Shown: positions 1,096 to 44,259 of the stretch, one piece after another
How positions within the stretch are numbered: position 1 is the first letter of the stretch
Layout: the number at the start of each line of letters is the position of its first letter
From: Candidatus Bathyarchaeota archaeon
Lineage (GTDB): Archaea; Thermoproteota; Bathyarchaeia; TCS64
Direction: 5' to 3'
NCBI GenBank assembly: GCA_016930055.1
Contig: JAFGHP010000083.1
Location: forward strand, 15,138 to 79,137
DNA length: 64,000 nt
Translations under genes and position numbers: made by a program
Notes under the pieces: model-generated
Database searches by the model: none
Seen by the model: only the letters and a program-made list of their open reading frames with translations
Told to the model about the DNA's origin: nothing

Positions 1096-1769
1096 TGATG
1101 TAACTCCATTAATTCATAAATTCTTCGAAGCCTCTCCAAAGGTAATTGACCAGGAGCTACTGCTTCATGTTGATTAGGTGAAGCATATGTCCATTCTCCT
1201 CCTACCAAGGGAGATATTATTCTAGACAATACTCCCGATGTAGACATCCCGAAAGCTATGTTTCCTGGATGATTTTTTAAAAATTCTAAATAAACGATGT
1301 TGTCATAATAATTATTTGCGTTACCAACAATTTTACAAATACTACAACCAGAGTTTTTTGCTCTAGTGTACATTTCTTCCATTTCATATATTGTTGGTGT
1401 TTTATTGAAGTCATGATATGAAATTATTAATTTTGAAGATGTGCTTTGAAGATCTGATGCAACATTAAGTATGTTTGGAGTTGATGCTTCTAAATCAACA
1501 TAAGAAAAACCCGAATTACAAGCATTTATTAAAAGATTAATTCTATCTTTTTCAGGTTTTTTCCATAATCCACCATCATTTTTGATTCGTGCAGTTGCTA
1601 TTAACGGGATTTTTGTTACTTCAACGATTTTATAGGGATTAATATCCTTTTTGCTGTAATCGAAACGTATTTCTATTAAATCTGGAGATAGAGGTTCTAG
1701 TCTTTTAATCGTTTTTATTATTTTTGATATATTTAATGCTTGTAGAGTAACACAAATCTTGGGATTCAT
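1092..1769 (-). CDS. aroD: 3-dehydroquinate dehydratase, type I
   Basis: The 225-aa ORF has type I DHQase length and TIM-barrel-like sequence. It lies between aroB and aroE with 4-nt overlaps. Confidence 0.85.
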   Translation of the reverse strand: MNPKICVTLQALNISKIIKTIKRLEPLSPDLIEIRFDYSKKDINPYKIVEVTKIPLIATARIKNDGGLWKKPEKDRINLLINACNSGFSYVDLEASTPNILNVASDLQSTSSKLIISYHDFNKTPTIYEMEEMYTRAKNSGCSICKIVGNANNYYDNIVYLEFLKNHPGNIAFGMSTSGVLSRIISPLVGGEWTYASPNQHEAVAPGQLPLERLRRIYELMELHQ

Positions 1770-25477: not shown

Positions 25478-25554
25478 TTTAAATTAAATTATGGAAAGCT
25501 ATATATGAGCGTTATGCATGACTAGGCTGCGTAAAAAGGAGAGACAAAATTAAC

Positions 25555-26136
25555 TTGTCAAAGGCTGTTAGAGACAAGTGGCGCCGGAAGGAGTGGTATG
25601 ATATTATCCTTCCACATTATTTCGGTGAGACTAAAGTCGGTGAAACCCCAGCGGAAGAAGGGGTTAATATAAATGGAAGAATATTTGAAACCACTCTAGC
25701 TCAAATCACCGGAGATTTTAGCCAAGAACACATTAAAATGTATTTCCAAGTAACAGATGTTGAAGAGCATAAAGCGAATACAATTTTTAGAGGACATGAA
25801 TATCTTCGAGATTATTTAAGGAGCCTAGTTAGAAGACGCAGCACTAAAATAGATGGCATATTCAGAGTAACAACACAAGACGGTTACAAAGTGAAAATCA
25901 TAGTTACCACAATGACTCAAACAAGAATACAGACAAGTCAGGAATATAAAATTAGACTGATAATGAAAGAAATCGTTGAAGAAAAAGCGAAAAATCTTAC
26001 ATTTGATCAAATAGCACATGAAATGGTTTTAGGAAAATTAGCTAGTGATGTATATAATTTAGCTAAAAATGTCACTAGTCTTCGTCACGTTGGAGTAAGA
26101 AAGAGTGAATTAATATCCTTGCCTATATCATCTTAA
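25555..26136 (+). CDS. rps3ae: 30S ribosomal protein S3Ae (S1e)
   Basis: 193 aa with the S3Ae signature (KEWYDI.LP..FG...VGET...). It has a TTG start preceded by AAAGGAGAG. Confidence 0.9.
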   Translation: MSKAVRDKWRRKEWYDIILPHYFGETKVGETPAEEGVNINGRIFETTLAQITGDFSQEHIKMYFQVTDVEEHKANTIFRGHEYLRDYLRSLVRRRSTKIDGIFRVTTQDGYKVKIIVTTMTQTRIQTSQEYKIRLIMKEIVEEKAKNLTFDQIAHEMVLGKLASDVYNLAKNVTSLRHVGVRKSELISLPISS

Positions 26137-29372: not shown

Positions 29373-29402
29373 AAAACCAAAAAATAAATAAATGGGTGTG
29401 AG

Positions 29403-29795
29403 GTGAACGAAATACCCATAATGAACAAGAAGGACTTCAAAAAACTCTTTCCAAACCTTTCTGATGAGATGGAGACAGGAAAGTCCCTAGCAGATATAGA
29501 ATTTGAATCAGATCCTCCAAAAAAAGAGAGAAGATATCAAAGTTATAATCCAGAAGCAGTGGATTTCCTCCGCCGTTGTAAAACTATTGAACAAGCAGAA
29601 GAGATAATAGCATATCTTGAAAAAAGAAAGGAAATTCAAAAACAAGAAGCCACTGCTCTTAGAAAACAATTAAAAGAAAAAGGATTAAAAAGTTTCGGAG
29701 CACCAAAAAGACTTGGTTTTTATGAAATTGACGAGAAAGAAGTAGATGATGAAGACGAAGACGATTTTGATGATTTTATCGATGAGGATGAATAA
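29403..29795 (+). CDS. hypothetical protein with acidic C-terminal tail
   Basis: The 130-aa ORF has a C-terminal DDEDEDDFDDFIDEDE tail. Confidence 0.4.
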   Translation: MNEIPIMNKKDFKKLFPNLSDEMETGKSLADIEFESDPPKKERRYQSYNPEAVDFLRRCKTIEQAEEIIAYLEKRKEIQKQEATALRKQLKEKGLKSFGAPKRLGFYEIDEKEVDDEDEDDFDDFIDEDE

Positions 29796-33367: not shown

Positions 33368-35431
33368 TTATCGAAATAAAGCATAAATTAAGAATAGTGG
33401 TAAGAATATATTAGCAACTAGACCAATAACTGTAACCATAGTATTAAGACTTGGTCCTGCAGTGTCCTTAAAGGGATCACCAACAGTGTCCGCAATCACG
33501 GCAGCTTTGTGAGCTTCGCTATGTTTACCTCCATGATGACCTTCTTCAATATACTTTTTAGCATTGTCCCATAATCCTCCCGCATTACTCATTAATAAAG
33601 CGAAAAGTAATCCGCTGAAAATATTTCCTGCTAGATAGCCACCGAGCCCGTATACCCCAAAAATTAATCCAACCATTATTGTGACGGTTATGATAATTAT
33701 TGTTGCAGGCATCAATTCGTGTAGTGCACCAATTGTAGCAATATCAACACATTTAGCATAATCTGGAACAACACCTTCTTTTCCTTCACGTAAACCAGGA
33801 ATCTCTTTAAATTGTCGTCTAACCTCCTCAATCATACGTTGAGCATTTTTACCTACACCTAACATAAGGATTGCAGAAAAAATAGGTGGAAGAGCAATAC
33901 CAATTAACACTCCTACCATCACTATTGGATTCATTAAATCGAAAGTAATTATTTGATTTAATTGCACTTCAGCAACTTCTTTATATGCAGCTAAAATACT
34001 CAAGACAGTTAAACCTGCTGCACCAATGGCGAAGCCTTTTGTTATGGCTTTGGTTGTATTGCCAGCAGCATCTAGCTTATCTAAAATATTTATCGTTTCT
34101 TCAGTAAAACCACTCATTTCTGCAATGCCTTTAGCATTATCTCCAATAGGTCCAAAACTATCTCCTGCAATAATCATAGCCACTACACTAAGCATACCAA
34201 AAGCAGATATTCCTATACCATATACTCCATATCCAGGACCTATTGCTTCGCATAGTGTGTAAGAAATCCAGCTTCCTAATCCAATACCAACAAGTGGAGG
34301 AAAAACACTAATTAAACCATAACTAAATCCAGTAATTATAGTAACAGCTGGACCTGTAAGACTACTAGATGCTGTAAGTTGAGTTGGTGGTTTATTGGTG
34401 CTAGTGAAATATTCAGTAGTCATACCAATTATTACTCCAACAATTAATCCAACTGTACTTGCCCCCCAAAGCCTCCAATTATATCCTTGAAGATAAGTTA
34501 CAATTGAAGTCAGTATCAGATATAGAATACAAGTCACATATGTACCATTATTTAGGACTGCACCAGGATCTTGACCTTCTTTAACATTAACTAAGAAAAT
34601 TCCAATTAAAGCACTAGTTATACCTATGCCTGCAAAAATTAAGGGGAGTTCTACTAGATAACCACCTAGAATTACTCCTAAAAGCATTACAGCCATTAAA
34701 CTTGCTACGTAACTATCAAAAAGATCAGCACCCATTCCCGCACAGTCACCAACATTATCTCCAACATTATCAGCAATTACAGCAGGGTTTCTAGGATCAT
34801 CTTCTGGTAAGTCCATCTCAATTTTTCCTACAAGATCAGCTGCAATGTCAGCGGTTTTTGTATATATACCACCTCCAGCTTTAGCAAAAAGAGCCATTGC
34901 GGATGCACCGAAACTAAAGCCAACTATAATATTAGGATCTCCAGTGAAGAAATATATTGCACTTACACCTAACAGAGCAAGACCAACAACAGCTAATCCT
35001 GTAACAGCACCACCTCGAAAGGCTATTAAAAAGGCACGAGTAATACCTTTTTGTGCAGAGTGAGCGCTCCTCATATTACTATCGGTAGCTACATCCATTC
35101 CTAAATATCCGGCAAGACCAGAACAAAGTGAACCAAATAAATATGCGACCACTAAAAGGATATTATCTATTGGTGTAGTAGTTGACCAAATCGGGTGTGG
35201 TAAGAAAATTAATAGAATAATAGACATGACAACAACAAACATACCTAACATTTTATACATTCGTTTGAGGAATGCTTGAGAACCATCTTTGATCGCTTTT
35301 CCAATGAAACGGGTTCTTTCGTTTCCAGGATCTTGACCTTTAACCCACCGGAGAATATAAAGTCCGGTTAAAATTGATATGAGTGCCGAAATTGGCGCTA
35401 TTAGCCAAGCGTTATCTATTGCTATTTTAAT
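33368..35431 (-). CDS. hppA: membrane-bound proton/sodium-translocating pyrophosphatase
   Basis: The ORF has the canonical IADNVGDNVGDCAGMGADLFDSY motif and many TM helices. The ORF-track start (ATG 35260) lies inside the conserved ..AFLKRMYK.. motif. The first TM helix (IAIDNAWLIAPISALISILTGLYILRWV) is encoded in-frame upstream (35261-35452) with no ATG/GTG/TTG. GGAGGT lies 8 nt before ATA (35423-35425), so the exact 5' end is uncertain. Confidence 0.8.
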   Translation of the reverse strand: MKIAIDNAWLIAPISALISILTGLYILRWVKGQDPGNERTRFIGKAIKDGSQAFLKRMYKMLGMFVVVMSIILLIFLPHPIWSTTTPIDNILLVVAYLFGSLCSGLAGYLGMDVATDSNMRSAHSAQKGITRAFLIAFRGGAVTGLAVVGLALLGVSAIYFFTGDPNIIVGFSFGASAMALFAKAGGGIYTKTADIAADLVGKIEMDLPEDDPRNPAVIADNVGDNVGDCAGMGADLFDSYVASLMAVMLLGVILGGYLVELPLIFAGIGITSALIGIFLVNVKEGQDPGAVLNNGTYVTCILYLILTSIVTYLQGYNWRLWGASTVGLIVGVIIGMTTEYFTSTNKPPTQLTASSSLTGPAVTIITGFSYGLISVFPPLVGIGLGSWISYTLCEAIGPGYGVYGIGISAFGMLSVVAMIIAGDSFGPIGDNAKGIAEMSGFTEETINILDKLDAAGNTTKAITKGFAIGAAGLTVLSILAAYKEVAEVQLNQIITFDLMNPIVMVGVLIGIALPPIFSAILMLGVGKNAQRMIEEVRRQFKEIPGLREGKEGVVPDYAKCVDIATIGALHELMPATIIIITVTIMVGLIFGVYGLGGYLAGNIFSGLLFALLMSNAGGLWDNAKKYIEEGHHGGKHSEAHKAAVIADTVGDPFKDTAGPSLNTMVTVIGLVANIFLPLFLIYALFR

Positions 35432-35509
35432 TACCTCCTTTGGACCTTGAAATTACTCTTTGTGAATACCAGTAAAGAATATAAAAAGATAGATACAAAA
35501 AAGCCTATT

Positions 35510-35929
35510 TTAATTAATAATATAGCCATCTAAGGCTAAATGATTTTTTTGTCTAAGATAAATTACGGGTATACCTTCATTTCTTAGTCGTTGTCTTAAT
35601 TCGTTATCGGTTGTCGCAACGATATATGAATTTTCTTTGGCTAATCTTAGTAACTTTGAATCAACATCTTCATCATTATTACTGTTATCATCATCAATTA
35701 TTTTATATTTAGAAAGATTTGACAAAACAAAACTGATTTCTTTTTTAAAAGAAGGCTGACCTCCTTTTTTGAGACTATCCAATTCTTTTAAAACTGATTT
35801 TGTTATGGTTGGTTCATAAGCAATATCTAATAACATATCAAGTTGATCAAAAACATCTATACCAAATCTTATAGGCAATAATAAAAAATTTGTATCAAAA
35901 ATAATAATTAATGGGGCTTTGTGCATCAA
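35510..35929 (-). CDS. PIN-domain protein
   Basis: The 139-aa ORF has an N-terminal IIFDTNFLL PIN motif and conserved acidic residues. It occupies the position downstream of aIF2-gamma that is conserved in archaea. Confidence 0.65.
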   Translation of the reverse strand: MMHKAPLIIIFDTNFLLLPIRFGIDVFDQLDMLLDIAYEPTITKSVLKELDSLKKGGQPSFKKEISFVLSNLSKYKIIDDDNSNNDEDVDSKLLRLAKENSYIVATTDNELRQRLRNEGIPVIYLRQKNHLALDGYIIN

Positions 35930-35930
35930 T

Positions 35931-37169
35931 TCAGTTTCTCAATACCCCTGCTCCAATTAATCTCCATCTACCACCAATTCTACGACTTATTGCTACGTGA
36001 TCAGTTTCTTCTCCACAGATAGGAATAGATAATTTTGCCTCTATGTAGTCTTTCTTTACTAAAGTAATGTCCGCCATAGTCTTTGAGGTTCCTACATTTA
36101 GTAGAAGTTTTTCTCCTTTAGCAATTTTAGCTACTGCTTCCTGTTCTTTACTACCAATAACGCTACTAAAAAGTTTAATATCAAGATTTAGCTCTTCACG
36201 AACAGGTGGTAACATGCCAGGTATTCCAGCAATACTTCCAACTAGACCATCTGATTTGGTTAAAGATGGATCAAGAGTTGTCCCAACACCTACAAGACCC
36301 CCAGGCAAAGCCTCTGAAACAGAACTATCTCCTATATATAAACTGGTAATTTCTGTAGTTAATTCTCTCATTTTGACTTTATTTTTCTCTCTAGTGGGTA
36401 AACCGGGGCGAATTTCTATTTCATCGCCTACTTTGAAGCTGCCTTGATAAATTGAACCTCCAAGAACCCCTCCCATCAGATCTTCAATTAATGTTCCTGG
36501 ATTATTCACATCGAAACTTCGAATAATATGCATTCGTGCAGGTTTATTTGGGTCTCTTTTAGGGGTTAGTAAATATTCTTGAATTGCTTGTAAAAGGAGA
36601 TCGATATTTAATTTATGTTGAGCGGAAACAGGGATTATTGGAGCATTTTCCGCAATACTTCCTTTTAAAAATTTTAATATATCAGTATAATTTCTAATCG
36701 CTTCGTCACGATTAACTAAATCGATTTTATTTTGGACCACAATAATGTTTTTTAAACCAATTATATCTATAGCTGCTAAGTGTTCGCGGGTTTGTGGTTG
36801 AGGACATTTTTCGTTTGCTGCTATAACTAATATGGCTCCATCCATAACTGCAGCTCCACTTAACATAGTGGCCATTAAAATCTCGTGACCTGGCGCATCA
36901 ACAAAACTGATTGCTCTCTTAAACTCAGTATCCGAACCGCATTTTGTACACTCTGGTGTTACAGAATAACAATCAGGTTCATCACATTCTTTACATTTAT
37001 AAATAGCAAAATCAGCATAACCTAATTTAATCGTAATGCCTCTTTTTAATTCTTCACTATGTTTTGAAGCCCATTCTCCTGTAAGAGCTTGAACTAGTGT
37101 TGTTTTACCATGGTCGACATGACCTATTGTACCAATATTAATTTCTGGCTGCTTTGGTAGTTTAGGGAT
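35931..37169 (-). CDS. eif2g: translation initiation factor 2 subunit gamma (aIF2-gamma)
   Basis: The ORF track starts at an internal Met (36875). The in-frame upstream part encodes PKQPEINIGTIGHVDHGKTTLVQALTGEWASKHSEELKRGITIKLGYADFAIYKCKECDEPDCY...APGHE (P-loop and Zn knuckle). No ATG/GTG/TTG lies between the stop at 37200-37202 and the P-loop. GGGAGG (37179-37184) is followed 9 nt later by ATC (37167-37169). Confidence 0.85.
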   Translation of the reverse strand: MPKLPKQPEINIGTIGHVDHGKTTLVQALTGEWASKHSEELKRGITIKLGYADFAIYKCKECDEPDCYSVTPECTKCGSDTEFKRAISFVDAPGHEILMATMLSGAAVMDGAILVIAANEKCPQPQTREHLAAIDIIGLKNIIVVQNKIDLVNRDEAIRNYTDILKFLKGSIAENAPIIPVSAQHKLNIDLLLQAIQEYLLTPKRDPNKPARMHIIRSFDVNNPGTLIEDLMGGVLGGSIYQGSFKVGDEIEIRPGLPTREKNKVKMRELTTEITSLYIGDSSVSEALPGGLVGVGTTLDPSLTKSDGLVGSIAGIPGMLPPVREELNLDIKLFSSVIGSKEQEAVAKIAKGEKLLLNVGTSKTMADITLVKKDYIEAKLSIPICGEETDHVAISRRIGGRWRLIGAGVLRN

Positions 37170-37362
37170 ATTTCTTCGCCTCCCTGAATCTAAATGCGAT
37201 TACTATATTACTTACACTTAAATACGTTTAGCATAACTCGATGTATATTTCTTGTTTAAAAAATACTTTTTTTAATAAAAAAAAGTATTAAAAATATGAA
37301 AATAGTGATTATTTTTATAATGATAATCGATGCATCTAAACGTAGAGTGGGAAGAGCAATAA

Positions 37363-38529
37363 TTGGATAATTATTTAATAATTTGGATAAGACTACTAAA
37401 TAGTTTAATAACCATTGCTTTTTTCCCATATTTATATTTTATTTATAAAAAAACAAAAAAACATTTTTATCTACTTTGGGGAGGAGGATTTTTACTTTAT
37501 GGTATAGGCATTATAATTAGATCAATTTTACCTACAATTGGTTTAGAAGAATCTTTAAATGCACAAATCTTTTCCTTTATTTTCACTTTATCGGGATTCA
37601 TTTTTATTATAGTTGGAATCGGGGATCTTACAAATAGGATAAAATTAATGTTATGCACTTCGATGAGCATACCATTATTTTTATCTTATTTATTTTTTAC
37701 ATCTAAACCATATGAAATTGGTAGAGCAATTTCATTAATTCCCTTCATATTCATTAGTATAAGTTTACTGTTAATTAGGAAAAACTATACTTCAAGTCTA
37801 GATTTGTTAACAATAGGATGGATAATATTAACAATTGACAATATTGGATTAGCTTTAGAATTGATTTCTGAGATATTCGTAGAAGTTTTTGCGGTCTTAG
37901 GTAAGATTATAATTTTTTTAGGTATGACTTACCCACGTTTTTCACTGCTTGTGGATGATTTTAAAAGATTCTTAATATCAGGTTTACCAAATAATTATAC
38001 CGAAAATAATTTAAAACATGTTATTTTAGTGAATTCTACTAATGCAAATCGTGAAGTAGAATTAAAATGGATTAAAGAACAAGTTGAAGAAAATAAAATT
38101 CATGGTATTCGTACAATTCTTATTTCATATCATGATTTAATTTCAATTAATGATATAAAAAATATTAGAATAGATCAAAAGGATCTTTATATTGTTCGAA
38201 TGTTAACTGGAGGAAGAATTCTGCAAGAAATATTTACTAAAGATTCTATGACTATTAACGATGATCTTAACGAACTTGATATTTTATTAAATGAAATTAT
38301 TGAATTCTCCAAAGAAAAAAAAATAAAATGTTCAGTTATTCTTTATACTCTTTCTTCACTTATTCATATTCATGGGTGGAAAAGAGTATATTCTTTCATG
38401 GTTTCAAAGTTTCAATATATTAAAGATAGTGAGATTCATGTGATTGCTTTTTATTACCCTCAAACACATGAAAATATTGCAGATATAGTAAAATTTGAAA
38501 AAATTGTAGATGATATTATTGATTTGTAA
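37363..38529 (+). CDS. membrane protein with cytoplasmic C-terminal domain (possible KaiC-associated sensor/anchor)
   Basis: The 388-aa ORF has about 6 predicted TM helices in its first 190 aa, followed by a 200-aa soluble domain. It lies upstream of a GH3-like ligase and a KaiC-like ATPase. Confidence 0.45.
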   Translation: MDNYLIIWIRLLNSLITIAFFPYLYFIYKKTKKHFYLLWGGGFLLYGIGIIIRSILPTIGLEESLNAQIFSFIFTLSGFIFIIVGIGDLTNRIKLMLCTSMSIPLFLSYLFFTSKPYEIGRAISLIPFIFISISLLLIRKNYTSSLDLLTIGWIILTIDNIGLALELISEIFVEVFAVLGKIIIFLGMTYPRFSLLVDDFKRFLISGLPNNYTENNLKHVILVNSTNANREVELKWIKEQVEENKIHGIRTILISYHDLISINDIKNIRIDQKDLYIVRMLTGGRILQEIFTKDSMTINDDLNELDILLNEIIEFSKEKKIKCSVILYTLSSLIHIHGWKRVYSFMVSKFQYIKDSEIHVIAFYYPQTHENIADIVKFEKIVDDIIDL

Positions 38530-38554
38530 ACATTCGAGGTGTGAGAGATAATCG

Positions 38555-39979
38555 ATGTCAACATTAATTAAAAAAATTTTTGTTAAAACTTTAGAAAAAT
38601 ATGCTTTAAGATTTACTTCAAAAAAGAAAATTAGTGAAGAAATTACTAAAAATATTTCAGAAAAATTAAAAAAAGCTTCAAATTCAACACTAGGGAAAGA
38701 ATTAGGGATTTCTTATAATTCAAATATAGATAAATTACCATTAACAAATTATGGTTTTTATCAAAAATATTTCGAATTTCCGAATTCTAATAGTTTATTA
38801 TATCCAATAAATGATTATGTAAAAGTATCTACTAGTGGAACTATGGGAAAACCTAAAAGTTTCCTCGTTCCAAAACCTGCTTTAACAGATAATATGCAAA
38901 AAACAGGGTTTTCTAACCTTTTCCTTTATACTCATGATGGTGAAAAAGTGACATTTGAGTATGGAGATGTAGTTTATACGAATACTCCTGGAGGAAATCA
39001 CCTTGCAGCATACAATTCAGAGATTGGAGCTAAACAAAATAAGGGTCTAGTTAAATTATGTCCAGACATTAATCTTCTTTTTAAAGATAAAGTTGAGTTC
39101 TTTATTGAAAATTATAATAAAATTGATGTAGCTTACATGCCAGTAACCACATTGATTGATGATGTTTATCCAAAAATTGGGCATCCATTTAAATTGAAAG
39201 GGTTCATAACACAAGACAGTTCTGCATGTTTTCTGAAAGAAGAAATAAAGAAAATTATTGGAAGTTACCCAAAAGTAACTTATGGTTCAACTGAAACATT
39301 AGCTTCAACTATGCCTTCAATAGAAAATCCTGGTTCTTTCTTTTTTGATTGGAGGGTATTATTTATAGAGTTAATTCCCGAAAAAGACCAGATAAAAACT
39401 GATTTCCAAACTCTAAAGGAACCCAAAGAAACATTATCTTTTTTAGATGCAGAAGTAAATAAAAAATATCAAGTTGTAGCAACTCTCTATAAAACAGATT
39501 TAACAAGATATGTAATGCCAGATATAATTGAATGCACCTGTATAGGTGACGATGTTTTAGGTTTAGAAACTCCAGTCTTTAAATATTATTCTAGATCGGA
39601 TAAAATCATTAATTTACATAATTTTACTAGGATTGGAGAACCTGAAATGTTAGAAGTCTTACTAGCATCAGGGATTAAATTCGTGGATTTTGTCGTATCT
39701 AGAGAAGTTGAAGGTTCTAGAGAGTATATGATATTATATATTGAAACGGATTCTAAAATAGATGAAACAGATCTTTATAGGGCTATTGATGAAGAGCTTA
39801 CGACTTTTGATAAAGATTGGAGAGATCTAAAGAATTACTTTAATTATTATCCTTTAAAAATCAGATTTTTACCAAAGGGAAGTTTCAATAGATATTTATC
39901 TAATAAAAAAGGTATGCCTTCTATTGACCGTATTGGTATGAAAGAAGAAAATTTAAAACAATTATTAAAACAGGATTAA
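38555..39979 (+). CDS. GH3/ANL-superfamily adenylate-forming enzyme (putative)
   Basis: The 474-aa ORF has a VSTSGTMGKPKSF motif (ANL motif A3-like) and a YGSTE motif (A5-like), plus GH3-like length. Confidence 0.5.
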   Translation: MSTLIKKIFVKTLEKYALRFTSKKKISEEITKNISEKLKKASNSTLGKELGISYNSNIDKLPLTNYGFYQKYFEFPNSNSLLYPINDYVKVSTSGTMGKPKSFLVPKPALTDNMQKTGFSNLFLYTHDGEKVTFEYGDVVYTNTPGGNHLAAYNSEIGAKQNKGLVKLCPDINLLFKDKVEFFIENYNKIDVAYMPVTTLIDDVYPKIGHPFKLKGFITQDSSACFLKEEIKKIIGSYPKVTYGSTETLASTMPSIENPGSFFFDWRVLFIELIPEKDQIKTDFQTLKEPKETLSFLDAEVNKKYQVVATLYKTDLTRYVMPDIIECTCIGDDVLGLETPVFKYYSRSDKIINLHNFTRIGEPEMLEVLLASGIKFVDFVVSREVEGSREYMILYIETDSKIDETDLYRAIDEELTTFDKDWRDLKNYFNYYPLKIRFLPKGSFNRYLSNKKGMPSIDRIGMKEENLKQLLKQD

Positions 39980-40692
39980 ACTAAGACTGGTTCTTTATTA
40001 AAAACTTCGAAACCACGATAAGTAATTGAATATCTTCTAGGTTGTTCGTCATATTTTATTCCGCGCATTTTATCTACTCTTATTGTTTTTATTAAATTAT
40101 ATTCTCTTAGATCTTTATTCAATAAGATTACTCCATCAGCTAGAAATTGTTCCATATAGAAATCTCCTTCCTGTGGACTTGTTTCTGATGTTACTATAAC
40201 ATTACATCTTATCTTTCTTAATTCTTCAAACAATTCACTAATTAAGAATCGTTTTCGTCCAGAACGAGACTCATGAATCACGAGACTTGTTAAAGGGTCT
40301 ATTACTACATTTTTTGCTTTAGTTATCTTAATTGTATCTAGCAATTTTGTTATTGATAAATTAATTAGCTCATCAGATTCTTTGTCTCTATTTTTATTTG
40401 AACCAATTTCCGGTCGGGTAAATAAATCAAGTGTTATAAGTAGACCCTTCATCTCCCAACCAGTTAGATCCCATCCAAAGGAAGCGGTGTTTTTTTTCAT
40501 ACTTTCAATTGGCTCCTCAAGGCTAGCATAGACGCATATTTCTCCTCTATGAAGCGCTTTGATCAAGTATTGTATAGAAAATACTGTTTTACCTGTTCCA
40601 GGTCCACCACATAAAAGGGTGATTTTACTTTCTGGAAATCCTCCCCCAAGCATTTCATCTAATCCTAATATCCCAGTTGGAATGAAGTTCAT
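39976..40692 (-). CDS. KaiC-like RecA-superfamily ATPase (single domain)
   Basis: The 238-aa ORF has GILGLDEMLGGGFPE, a Walker A GGPGTGKT and a Walker B hydrophobic-D (NVVIDPL), the same arrangement as archaeal KaiC-like ATPases. Confidence 0.8.
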   Translation of the reverse strand: MNFIPTGILGLDEMLGGGFPESKITLLCGGPGTGKTVFSIQYLIKALHRGEICVYASLEEPIESMKKNTASFGWDLTGWEMKGLLITLDLFTRPEIGSNKNRDKESDELINLSITKLLDTIKITKAKNVVIDPLTSLVIHESRSGRKRFLISELFEELRKIRCNVIVTSETSPQEGDFYMEQFLADGVILLNKDLREYNLIKTIRVDKMRGIKYDEQPRRYSITYRGFEVFNKEPVLV

Positions 40693-40865
40693 TTAATCAC
40701 CTTAATTTTAACGGAATTATCTTAGGAGAATAATAACTAATACAAATATATTTCTAAAATATATAAAGCCTTTATGCTATTAGTAAAAGTTAAGTTAATT
40801 GAAAATATGATTATAATTGCGAAAGGGATGAGGTTCTATTAAGAACCAAAGTAATAGGTGTCGCT

Positions 40866-41468
40866 TTGAATAAGATCAAACATATTAAATATAAACCAAT
40901 ACCTGTGAGAGATACTCTAATTGAAATAAAAGATGTTTCTGAGTTAATGTTAGATCTTGCATATTCTGCAGCACTCTTTAATAATGTACAATTAGCAGAA
41001 GAAGTTATTCAGTTAGAAAAAAAAATTGATGATTTACAATACCAGTTAAATATGAATTTAATGTTAATAACGCATAATCCGAAAGATGCTGAAGCATTAG
41101 CGGGAGTACAAAGAGTTGGAAGTTTAGCAAACACAATATCTGACGCTGCTGGAGATATTGCTAAAATTGTTTTAAAAGGATTAAATGTTCATCCAATAGC
41201 TCAAAAAGCATTTGAATTAACTGAAGAAAAATTAGATTTAATGTTTGTTTCAGAAAACTCGATAATTATTGGTCATACAGTAGACGAATTACATTTGGCT
41301 AGAAAAATAGGTGCAGATATAATTGCAATTAGAAGAGGTCAACATTGGTTAATTAACCCTGGAAAAGAGATGATTATGCCTGAGGATATGATAATAGCTA
41401 GAGGAACATTTTCGGGACTGGAAGTTTTAAAGAAAGCATCAACGGGAGAGATAGATATTATTGAGTGA
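40866..41468 (+). CDS. PhoU-like / TrkA-C (RCK_C) domain regulatory protein, paralog 1
   Basis: The 200-aa ORF has an N-terminal helical PhoU-like region and a C-terminal TrkA_C-like barrel (..IIAIRRGQHWLINPGKEMIMPEDMIIARG). Confidence 0.55.
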   Translation: MNKIKHIKYKPIPVRDTLIEIKDVSELMLDLAYSAALFNNVQLAEEVIQLEKKIDDLQYQLNMNLMLITHNPKDAEALAGVQRVGSLANTISDAAGDIAKIVLKGLNVHPIAQKAFELTEEKLDLMFVSENSIIIGHTVDELHLARKIGADIIAIRRGQHWLINPGKEMIMPEDMIIARGTFSGLEVLKKASTGEIDIIE

Positions 41469-42054
41469 TGACGTTAATCGTATAGAAAAAGCAACCCAAA
41501 TTCTCGTAGAATTAAAAGATACGTCTGAATTAATGATGGATTTAGCCTATTCTTCAATTCTGTTAAATAATTCGTACTTAGCCGAAGAAGTTCAAATACT
41601 TATGGAAAAAATGAGCCAACTTCATTTCGATTTTGATTATATAATTTTGTCATGTAAAATAGAAAAAGATGATGTTGGTGGTTTAATAGGTCTACTTAGA
41701 ATTGGAACAGCTTCAGAAAAAATTGCAGATGCTGCTTCAGAAATAGCACAAATTGTTTTAAGAGGAATTGAACCCCATCCAGTTTTATCTATGGTTATAC
41801 AAGAAGCCGAAGAAACAGTGGAGAGAGTTACTGTTCCAGAAGGATCTCCAATAGTTAATAAGACATTAAAAGAAAGTCAAATTCCTGAAGAAACAGGTAT
41901 GTGGGTTTTAGCTATCCGCCGTGGGGATAGATGGATTCGACCTAAAGCAAATACAGTAATTGAAGCGAGGGACATCATTGTTGCAGCAGGTTATGCTGAT
42001 GGAGAAACCGATTTCAAACAATTAATTTGTGGGTGTGAAAACCCCTTAGACTAA
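41461..42054 (+). CDS. PhoU-like / TrkA-C (RCK_C) domain regulatory protein, paralog 2
   Basis: The 197-aa ORF is collinear with the preceding ORF (IELKDTSELMMDLAYSSILLNN..., VLAIRRGDRWIRPKANTVIEARDIIVAAG) and overlaps it by 8 nt. Confidence 0.55.
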   Translation: MSDDVNRIEKATQILVELKDTSELMMDLAYSSILLNNSYLAEEVQILMEKMSQLHFDFDYIILSCKIEKDDVGGLIGLLRIGTASEKIADAASEIAQIVLRGIEPHPVLSMVIQEAEETVERVTVPEGSPIVNKTLKESQIPEETGMWVLAIRRGDRWIRPKANTVIEARDIIVAAGYADGETDFKQLICGCENPLD

Positions 42055-42068
42055 TTTTAAAAAATTTT

Positions 42069-42461
42069 TTAATCAGTACTAACTGATTCGAGTTTGCTAT
42101 CCGTTTTTTTACGACTTTTAGGTTGTTCAGTGATCATTAGATTTAAAAATTTAATATCGGTACTAACCATATTTCCTCGAATTACTTTTCTCTTACGTTC
42201 ACCTTTTGTTTTTGGGTGGTATCCAACTCCTTCACTTAGGATCGGGGATATTTTTACACTCCCATGTATATCTGTTCTCATTGGTATACCATCTTTATCA
42301 TTTCCTCCAGTGATTTTTAATTTATAACCTGGCATATTAGCTATATTTCCATCAATTATTTCTCCAATTCGCTTACCAATAAGGGGGCTATACCTAGAAT
42401 CTTCTAAATCGATCTTTTGACTTTTTCCTGTTGAGGGATCCGATACTATGAGTGTTGGCAT
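42069..42461 (-). CDS. rps6e: 30S ribosomal protein S6e
   Basis: 130-aa ORF with the S6e signature (KLKITGGNDKDGIPM...). Confidence 0.9.
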   Translation of the reverse strand: MPTLIVSDPSTGKSQKIDLEDSRYSPLIGKRIGEIIDGNIANMPGYKLKITGGNDKDGIPMRTDIHGSVKISPILSEGVGYHPKTKGERKRKVIRGNMVSTDIKFLNLMITEQPKSRKKTDSKLESVSTD

Positions 42462-42471
42462 TTTTATTCAC

Positions 42472-44259
42472 CTATATTGCCCATAAGGGGTCTTTTTTCC
42501 TTTTTATTTGAATTAGTTCCTCGAGGGTTTTATTAGCATTCTCCGTCAAGCGTGTTACGAATTTTTGTCGTAACATCCTGACATCCTTCTCTGGAACGTC
42601 TACGTACAGAACATCTTTCTCTTTTATATGTCTACCTACGATTGGGGTAGGCATTGACACTGCTACTTCTTTTCCTTCATCGGCTTTGGATATAGGTTGT
42701 CCTTGATCTTGCATTTGAGTCAATTTTCCTAACCCTTCATTTTCTCTATTTATCATTGGTACATTTGAGTATAGTACACCTGCTTCAACTTTTGCACCAA
42801 AAATAGCAGGTTTTGCACGTCGAAAAATAAAACCTTCCATTACTTGTATTTTAGCGGGTTGAATTAAACTATTAAATTCTTTTCGTGCTTTAGCTTCACG
42901 TTCTTCCTCAATCCATCGGACATAATCATCAATGATATTATAAATTATTACTCCTTTGAACACTTTGATTCTTTGTGATTCAGCTTCTGATTCAGCATCT
43001 GGTAATGTTTTTACATTGAATGCAAGAATTGCACCATATAATGGATCTTCATATTTTACACTTAAAGCCTCTAAAACATCACGCCGACTAACATCACCAA
43101 TATCAGCTAATCTTATAGGAATATCTCTTGCACGTATGCTTTCAACAAGTGCTTCTAAACTTCCAAGCGTATCAGTTTTTACTATTACACCGGTTCGATC
43201 CGCTTTAATTTTAACACTATCAACTTCTTGATTTACATCAGCTATTGCTTTTTCAAGAGTAATATCATCACCAACTGCAATAAGAGGAGTACCAGGTAAA
43301 GCGTCTTCAATAGAAGGAGCAGCAATTTTAATACCAGAAGCAGCGTGTACTTCTTGAATTATATTAAATTTCTTTTTTGGGTCTCTAATTTCATCAAGTG
43401 GCTGAGGCATAAGTAAAGCTCTAATTTTTGTTACAATAGGTCCATTTTTCCCACCAATGACAATTGTGTCTTCTTGATGTAATATCCCGTCATAAATTAT
43501 TGCATTAAGCGTAATTCCTAAACCTACTTCTTCACGAACTTCAAGGACAGTGCCTAAAGCAGATCCATCAGTAACTCTTAATTTATCTTGCATGTATTGT
43601 TGAGTTAAACCAATTAAAACCGCTAATAAGTCACCTACACCTTCACCAGTTTTTGCACTTACAGGAACCATTGCTATTGATCGAGTAAAATCACGAACCC
43701 GATCATAACGTTCACTATAAAAACCTTCACGACTCAGCGTCCCCATCATCTGATAGAGACGATTATCAAGATCTTCTTTAACAAGAGGAAGTTGTTCATT
43801 ATAACTCTGTAGAAATGCAGTGTTTTCTTTAGAACGCCAGCCTTCAATTCTATCTATTTTATTCGCAGCAATGATAAAAGGTGTTTTTCTACTTTTCAAA
43901 ATATTTAAAGATTCATATGTTTGGTTTTCAAATCCGTGCATAACATCTACAACTAAGATGGCGATATCAGCAACACTACCTCCTCGTCTACGAAGATTGG
44001 CAAATGCTTCGTGACCCGGGGTATCAACAACTAAAAGTCCTGGAATCTGAACATTTACTTTAAAATTTTTAACTAATTGTTGTGTTATAGCAACTAAAGT
44101 ATCGAAAGGGAAGTAACTTGCTCCAATTTGCTGTGTCATTCCTCCTGCTTCACGTAACTGAACCGCAGTACCACGAATTTTATCTAACAAACTAGTTTTT
44201 CCTGTATCAACGTGTCCTAGCATACAAACAATTGGCTGACGAATTACCATACACGACAC
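42472..44259 (-). CDS. infB: translation initiation factor aIF5B (IF-2 homolog)
   Basis: The 595-aa ORF has a G domain (GHVDTGKTSLLD, DTPGH, NKID) followed by beta-barrel domains. Confidence 0.9.
   Translation of the reverse strand: MSCMVIRQPIVCMLGHVDTGKTSLLDKIRGTAVQLREAGGMTQQIGASYFPFDTLVAITQQLVKNFKVNVQIPGLLVVDTPGHEAFANLRRRGGSVADIAILVVDVMHGFENQTYESLNILKSRKTPFIIAANKIDRIEGWRSKENTAFLQSYNEQLPLVKEDLDNRLYQMMGTLSREGFYSERYDRVRDFTRSIAMVPVSAKTGEGVGDLLAVLIGLTQQYMQDKLRVTDGSALGTVLEVREEVGLGITLNAIIYDGILHQEDTIVIGGKNGPIVTKIRALLMPQPLDEIRDPKKKFNIIQEVHAASGIKIAAPSIEDALPGTPLIAVGDDITLEKAIADVNQEVDSVKIKADRTGVIVKTDTLGSLEALVESIRARDIPIRLADIGDVSRRDVLEALSVKYEDPLYGAILAFNVKTLPDAESEAESQRIKVFKGVIIYNIIDDYVRWIEEEREAKARKEFNSLIQPAKIQVMEGFIFRRAKPAIFGAKVEAGVLYSNVPMINRENEGLGKLTQMQDQGQPISKADEGKEVAVSMPTPIVGRHIKEKDVLYVDVPEKDVRMLRQKFVTRLTENANKTLEELIQIKRKKDPLWAI

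Follow-up and report, generated by a model that had tools for sequence, protein, structure and literature searches.

In E. coli, the codons AUA, AUC and AUU (together AUH) initiate translation at 1-2% of the level of AUG, and only two natural non-canonical starts have been confirmed, those of infC and pcnB, both of which are AUU (bioRxiv 10.1101/063800). As for archaea, the 30S complexes of S. solfataricus bind an AUU mRNA as long as aIF1 is absent (review PMC4705826), and aIF1 of P. abyssi stabilises mRNAs with a good Shine-Dalgarno (SD) context (PMC6237735). Our literature searches on archaeal AUA, AUU or AUC starts, on the start codons of Bathyarchaeota and on the autoregulation of aIF2 returned general background and no report of an AUH start in an archaeal gene. 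Here, we describe a membrane pyrophosphatase gene (hereafter, the pump) of Candidatus Bathyarchaeota archaeon, located on the minus strand of a 64,000-nt stretch of contig JAFGHP010000083.1 (G+C 32%), which is called the window below. The translation of the pump probably starts at an ATA codon placed behind a strong SD sequence; we give this reading a probability of about 0.78. The gene for the translation initiation factor aIF2-gamma, encoded nearby, shows a start of the same kind.

The proposed start of the pump resembles those of infC (IF3) and pcnB in that a near-cognate AUH codon follows an SD sequence and would be read by the initiator tRNA, with weak initiation depending on a fidelity factor (10.1101/063800; PMC4705826). 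However, the host is an archaeon, in which the fidelity factor would be aIF1 and not IF3, the pump is not a translation factor, and its codon is AUA instead of AUU. The aIF2-gamma gene has one more feature in common with infC, as both encode translation initiation factors; the feedback known for infC would be hypothetical here. A similar logic is found in the eukaryotic autoregulation of eIF1 and eIF5, where a suboptimal start on an initiation factor gene makes its own synthesis sensitive to stringency (PMC6237735). There, however, the start is an AUG in a poor Kozak context or involves upstream open reading frames (ORFs), whereas aIF2-gamma combines a non-AUG codon with an SD sequence and is not itself a stringency factor. 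The genes initiated at UUG or GUG are also comparable: the sister pumps use UUG at the homologous codon, and the same expression-tuning logic would apply. UUG, which gene callers accept, mismatches at the first position of the codon, while AUA does so at the third and was about tenfold weaker than UUG in the E. coli measurements (10.1101/063800). Compared with the K+-independent H+-PPases (PDB 8b37, PF03030), the pump is homologous from helix 1 to the C-terminus and carries the signature GNTTKAITKG; the protein itself is ordinary, and only its initiation codon is unusual.

The reading frame and N-terminus of the pump

The coordinates of the features discussed are collected in Table 1. After the TAA that closes the frame, 694 codons are open from 35452 (-), and 64 of them pass before an ATG, GTG or TTG is reached in frame, namely the ATG at 35260-35258. 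The initial annotation of this DNA had described the same stop, followed by no ATG, GTG or TTG before 35260, and this was confirmed on the sequence. The codons before the ATG translate as FQGPKEVIKIAIDNAWLIAPISALISILTGLYILRWVKGQDPGNERTRFIGKAIKDGSQAFLKR. No ATG, GTG or TTG is present in any frame within 35475-35423, a stretch of 53 nt that ends with the ATA of the pump.

Table 1. Features of the pump and aIF2-gamma genes; positions are those of the window unless a relative is named.
Feature	Position (strand)	Remarks
Membrane pyrophosphatase CDS as proposed	33368..35425 (-)	685 codons + TAA, start ATA; from translation and profiles
Proposed initiation codon ATA	35425-35423 (-)	Corresponds by homology to the TTG of 11 sister lineages and the ATA of L001 and L003
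Pump codons 2-55	35261..35422 (-)	Transmembrane helix 1 and the cytoplasmic loop after it, ahead of the first ATG
First canonical in-frame ATG (Met56)	35258..35260 (-)	Judged not to be the real start
NCBI-annotated start ATT	35429..35431 (-)	Protein MKIAIDN...; rejected here
Pump Shine-Dalgarno AAGGAGGT	35433..35440 (-)	GGAGGT part at 35438-35433
Leader motif AGAGTAATTTCAA	35447..35459 (-)	Lies after the TATA-like element and before the SD
In-frame TAA closing the pump frame	35455-35453 (-)	
TATA-like element ATCTTTTTATAT	35479..35490 (-)	~59 nt upstream of ATA; predicted promoter, from archaeal promoter architecture
Pump signature GNTTKAITKG	34034-34063 (-)	Residues 455-464
Pump of lineage L106/L107	L106 2820-4893; L107 710-2783	Neighbours metallophosphatase and P-type ATPase; database protein P0087 only 630 aa
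aIF2-gamma CDS	35931..37169 (-)	Start ATC 37169-37167; whole frame 35931-37199
aIF2-gamma Shine-Dalgarno GGGAGG	37179..37184 (-)	9-nt spacer to ATC
aIF2-gamma of relatives, no canonical start before the P-loop	L003 1184-2459; L085, L086, L089, L090, L094, L096, L097, L101, L102, L104	

The translation started from ATA was compared with the curated profiles of the family. It scored 829 bits with NCBIfam NF001960 (cut-off 546), where residues 6-682 correspond to profile positions 4-671 of 673, and 779.6 bits with Pfam PF03030 H_PPase (cut-off 29.7) over residues 15-673, profile position 1 falling on residue 15. With both scores above the curated cut-offs, the pump is a full-length member of the family. 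The solved K+-insensitive proton pump (PDB 8b37_A) aligns to residues 9-675, residue 9 of the query corresponding to residue 17 of the chain, and in this alignment transmembrane helix 1 is obtained only when the translation begins upstream of the first ATG. The alignment with the V. radiata pump begins at residue 41 and puts the first ATG of the window inside a motif that follows helix 1; the motif, AIKDGSQAFLKRMYK, aligns to V. radiata residues 77-97. The initial annotation had placed the ATG in such a motif and had assigned the first transmembrane helix to the codons upstream; the former was confirmed by the V. radiata alignment and the latter by NF001960, PF03030, 8b37_A and the substitution rates given below.

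The relatives of the pump were taken from the DNA of its closest homologues and from metagenome contigs scanned with a clade-specific pattern. In comparison with two low-GC lineages of this set, L001 and L003, the dN/dS of codons 2-64 was 0.04-0.17 at pS of 0.60-0.69, which is near saturation. Downstream of codon 64, dN/dS was ~0.02, and the 685-codon frame is intact. By composition, 64 stop-free codons would be expected with P ~0.006 and 64 sense codons without a canonical start with P ~0.036; homology and conservation, and not these values, are decisive. Judged by them, the N-terminal extension is coding and is under purifying selection.

A standard gene caller would yield a 630-aa product from the ATG at 35260, and the database relatives P0061 and P0087 were called from the matching Met, 55 residues short. 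A pump that starts at this ATG without helix 1, or a gene in decay, is nevertheless very improbable in view of the strong selection on codons 2-64 and the intact, conserved frame downstream. The region before this ATG shows no SD, and the codon itself lies inside a conserved motif. Ahead of the ATG of P0087, the frame of its gene likewise offers no canonical start, and what stands there is a TAG followed by GGAGGT-N9-ATA, while P0061 begins at base 1 of its contig, which leaves no upstream DNA to read. The truncated version from Met56, which would lack helix 1 and a ribosome-binding site, was thus rejected.

In the K+-dependent enzyme of V. radiata, the sequence aligned with the signature of the pump is GNTTAAIGKG, with Ala and Gly where the pump has Lys and Thr. 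Lys and Thr in the motif GNTT(K/A)Ax(T/G)K are said to have been put forward as the mark of K+-independent H+-PPases by Belogurov and Lahti in 2002. Both residues are present in the pump, which fits a predicted K+-independent proton pump and agrees with the H+-pyrophosphatase label of the initial annotation. By the best explanation, the gene encodes a full-length, 16-helix-type, K+-independent membrane pyrophosphatase. The automatic names for the protein are 'sodium-translocating' or 'K+-stimulated sodium pump'; the 'sodium-translocating' of NCBIfam is a generic label.

The proposed start codon of the pump and its conservation

The SD sequence AAGGAGGT is separated from the ATA by 7 nt (AATTAAA), and the spacers of the confident ATG genes in the window are about 5-8 nt. 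Among the 62 ORFs of the window, no anti-SD match is longer than its 7-mer AGGAGGT, which is optimally spaced at 7 nt; the sole other match of 7 nt has a spacer of only 3 nt. L001 and L003 retain the GGAGGT although their synonymous divergence is saturated. The initial annotation had described a strong GGAGGT ahead of an ATA at 35423-35425, and both the motif and the coordinates of the ATA stand, but the motif lies at 35438-35433 instead of 35434-35439, and the spacer is 7 nt and not 8 nt.

In every one of 11 distinct higher-GC sister lineages (~77-79% identity), the pump gene starts with GGAGG-N6-8-TTG, and this TTG aligns codon for codon with the ATA of the window (LVFENAWLIAP versus IAIDNAWLIAP). 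GGAGGT-N7-ATA was found at the homologous codon of two more low-GC lineages, L003 and L001, the latter being identical in four samples (L001=L002=L085=L088). The pumps of these lineages show 87-88% amino-acid identity at pS of 0.6-0.7, and in L003 an in-frame TAG directly precedes the homologous ATA. A fourth ATA lineage, L106/L107, is unlinked and has a different gene neighbourhood; its pump reads TAG CGA CGT GGA GGT GTA TGT GGC ATA GAG AAC GCT TGG, that is, GGAGGT-N9-ATA after an in-frame TAG, without a canonical start. The absence of a canonical start ahead of a conserved essential protein is common to the window and the relatives with ATA, as is an AUH codon suitably spaced from a conserved SD (AAGGAGGT-N7-ATA in the window, GGAGGT-N7-ATA in L001 and L003, GGAGGT-N9-ATA in L106). 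A whole-pump scan of contigs returned, among the matches listed, distant pumps (identity of at most 55%), none of them with aIF2-gamma nearby.

The initial annotation had proposed AUA initiation behind GGAGGT, an ATG-to-ATA point error or recoding, and had named the orthologs as the place to look for an ATG. All 15 lineages examined have TTG or ATA at this codon and none ATG, although ATG is one mutation away from both. AUA initiation is supported by the comparison, as the ATA is the TTG codon of the 11 sister lineages and the SD-ATA arrangement recurs in further lineages. A sequencing or assembly error that hides a true ATG is refuted on the comparative data: the ATA is present in four diverged lineages and in six or more assemblies that were made independently from separate samples (the window, SRR7989281, SRR7008010, Ga0194111, Ga0194125 and JGI 3300061209), and the neighbouring aIF2-gamma gene shows a like kind of start. 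We therefore regard such an error as practically excluded.

The deposited NCBI protein P0001, 'sodium-translocating pyrophosphatase [Candidatus Bathyarchaeota archaeon]', is 100% identical to the pump but has 687 aa and starts two codons further upstream. As it begins with MKIAIDN, the annotation pipeline must have picked the ATT at 35431-35429. This ATT is likewise near-cognate, but it stands 1 nt after the GGAGGT, too near for SD-directed placement, and the TTG of the relatives aligns with the ATA and not with the ATT. The codon matching it is AAA in L001 and a TAG stop in L003, so the ATT is not conserved, while the ATA is. The annotated start was rejected as quite improbable, and, with AAA or TAG in its place in the nearest relatives, the deposited N-terminus is probably two residues too long.

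Translation might instead begin at the following Ile codon of the frame (ATA 35419-35417) or at a different ATH close by. As their third codon, the pumps of the three low-GC lineages have ATA, ATC and ATA, and the single ATA of L106 aligns ambiguously to codon 2-3. A start there is unlikely, however, as its 13-nt spacer exceeds that of the confident ATG genes in the window, and the codon is not homologous to the TTG of the relatives. That some ATH codon within 35431-35419 serves as the start is very likely, and the ATA at 35425-35423 is the codon we prefer.

Upstream of the SD, the TATA-like element ATCTTTTTATAT is common to the window, L001 and L003, and appears as 'catctaNNtttttata' in the relatives starting with TTG. 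The window, L001 and L003 have exactly the same leader motif AGAGTAATTTCAA, while the bases adjacent to it vary and the synonymous sites of the coding region are saturated; the motif may mark the transcript start. From these elements, an independent and leadered transcript of the pump is predicted. The end of the PIN gene lies 85 nt upstream, at 35510, and it might be supposed that a frameshift, or re-initiation from this gene or from an upstream ORF, supplies the N-terminus. Such recoding is extremely improbable. The leader has no start codon in any frame, in-frame stops lie upstream in all lineages, the conserved TATA-like element separates the PIN and pump genes, and L106 has the same start architecture among different neighbours. 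Frameshifting and re-initiation were rejected, since the leader holds neither an ORF nor a start codon in any of the frames, and the recoding named in the initial annotation is left unsupported.

Several points weigh against the ATA start. Its support comes throughout from sequence comparison, and the promoter and the transcription start of the pump are predictions of the same kind. The second in-frame ATA at 35419, with its 13-nt spacer, is still a candidate. The preference for ATA over ATT and ATC is weak, since only four lineages have ATA and ATA makes up 36% of the Ile codons (P ~0.05 for the three low-GC lineages). Finally, to our knowledge, AUA initiation has not been demonstrated experimentally in any archaeon.

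The aIF2-gamma gene and the frequency of non-canonical starts

The frame of aIF2-gamma contains 108 codons without ATG, GTG or TTG, the GTP-binding loop (P-loop) GHVDHGKT included; the initial annotation did not mention this peculiarity. Translated from the ATC, the protein has 412 aa, and its residues 6-411 match positions 6-411 of NCBIfam NF003077, which has 412 positions. The NCBI entry P0121 uses the identical ATC start. In 12 distinct lineages of Bathyarchaeia, the homologous codon is ATA (7), ATC (3) or ATT (2) and never ATG. The relatives have equivalents of a G-rich SD 8-10 nt upstream of the ATH, and several lineages have an in-frame stop one or two codons before it (TAA GTC ATA, TAG ATT ATA, TGA GAC ATC). 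By this comparison, the conserved Ile codon behind the G-rich SD is the sole possible start of aIF2-gamma.

To see how the gene is called in the databases, we sorted its 120 best homologues. The P-loop was missing from 43 of them, and 25 had long extensions. A further 20 used a canonical start two codons ahead of the conserved Ile and another 20 a start at least one codon downstream of it; 11 started at the Ile codon itself, several of these being NCBI's own calls, and one started one codon upstream. The upstream ATG of some extended calls is the ATG inside the conserved TATA-like element of related contigs, and these extensions are therefore probably spurious.

In L003 (1-1340), the genes of aIF5B, S6e and aIF2-gamma are adjacent, and this region was compared with 37363-42467 of the window. 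There, five other ORFs separate aIF2-gamma from a 130-aa ORF (42069-42461) and a 595-aa ORF (42472-44259), which are S6e- and aIF5B-like by size alone. This difference suggests a lineage-specific insertion or rearrangement.

Out of the ~60 genes of the window, the pump and aIF2-gamma are the only ones that require a non-canonical start. Ten further ORFs of the window, with 5-27 codons before the first canonical start, were compared with Pfam, and all matched domains begin at or after the canonical start. Two of these comparisons are uninformative, as one ORF matched nothing and the match to DUF2095 was partial, from profile position 18. Among 116 ORFs of related contigs, which had been chosen through their pump and aIF2-gamma genes, long start-less extensions occur only in these two genes, the remainder being shadow ORFs. 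The genes of ribosomal protein S3Ae and DUF2095 have an ATT or ATA at the ideal distance of 7 nt from an SD-like motif (25537-25557 (+) and 29400-29423 (+)). A canonical TTG or ATG lies farther from the motif in both and is compatible with the Pfam matches, which makes these cases ambiguous.

Gene callers limited to ATG, GTG and TTG mis-annotate the pump and aIF2-gamma; because the proposed starts are ATA and ATC, they remove essential N-terminal parts of both proteins. The two closest public homologues of the pump, from the L001 and L003 lineages, were called 12 residues short, at a GTG or TTG inside helix 1. The homology-guided pipeline of NCBI recovered both genes of the window, although it gave the start of the pump as the adjacent ATT, against the comparative evidence. 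In another part of the window, a 92-nt tRNA-Tyr called by ARAGORN at 1623-1714 (+) lies antisense in the gene of a type I dehydroquinase (ORF 1092-1814, -). Rfam gives no support for a tRNA-Tyr at this position, and the call is probably a false positive.

Proposed mechanism and its meaning

According to the mechanism we propose, the mRNA of the pump is probably transcribed from its own TATA-like promoter with a leader of ~30 nt. The unusually strong SD AAGGAGGU, 7 nt before the AUA, would pre-position the small subunit, and the initiator Met-tRNA would pair with the AUA despite the mismatch at the third position, giving a protein that begins with Met. Because AUA is a poor start, the strong SD would offset it in part, and the rate of initiation would, on balance, be deliberately low; the weakness would be deliberate, since ATG is found in none of the lineages examined. 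The AUA would thereby continue the trend of this clade of pyrophosphatases, the other members of which use UUG and never AUG. The combination of a strong SD with a weak codon, together with the persistent lack of ATG, suggests that low initiation has been selected. For a polytopic membrane pump, such selection is plausible but unproven.

Since ATH also serves at aIF2-gamma, in this genome and in its class, the translation machinery of these archaea can apparently initiate at such codons. The pump would be a comparatively well-supported archaeal addition to the known class of AUH-initiated genes. More tentatively, it is conceivable that Bathyarchaeia keep non-AUG starts under selection (AUA, AUU or AUC on aIF2-gamma, UUG or AUA on the pump, with AUG a single mutation away but absent from the lineages examined), that the AUH of aIF2-gamma senses the stringency of initiation or the supply of ternary complex, and that the pump shares the relaxed discrimination at the third position; of this broader scheme we are doubtful. 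If it were true, the AUH start of aIF2-gamma would be the archaeal counterpart of the AUU feedback loop of bacterial infC. Such feedback may be an attractive possibility, its sequence precondition, a conserved AUH that is never ATG, having been seen in 12 lineages. A conserved AUH on the factor that delivers the initiator tRNA, together with an AUA gene in the same genome, would offer a system to probe the third-position stringency of archaeal aIF1 and aIF2, and the two genes allow us to ask if archaea regulate through the weakness of start codons.

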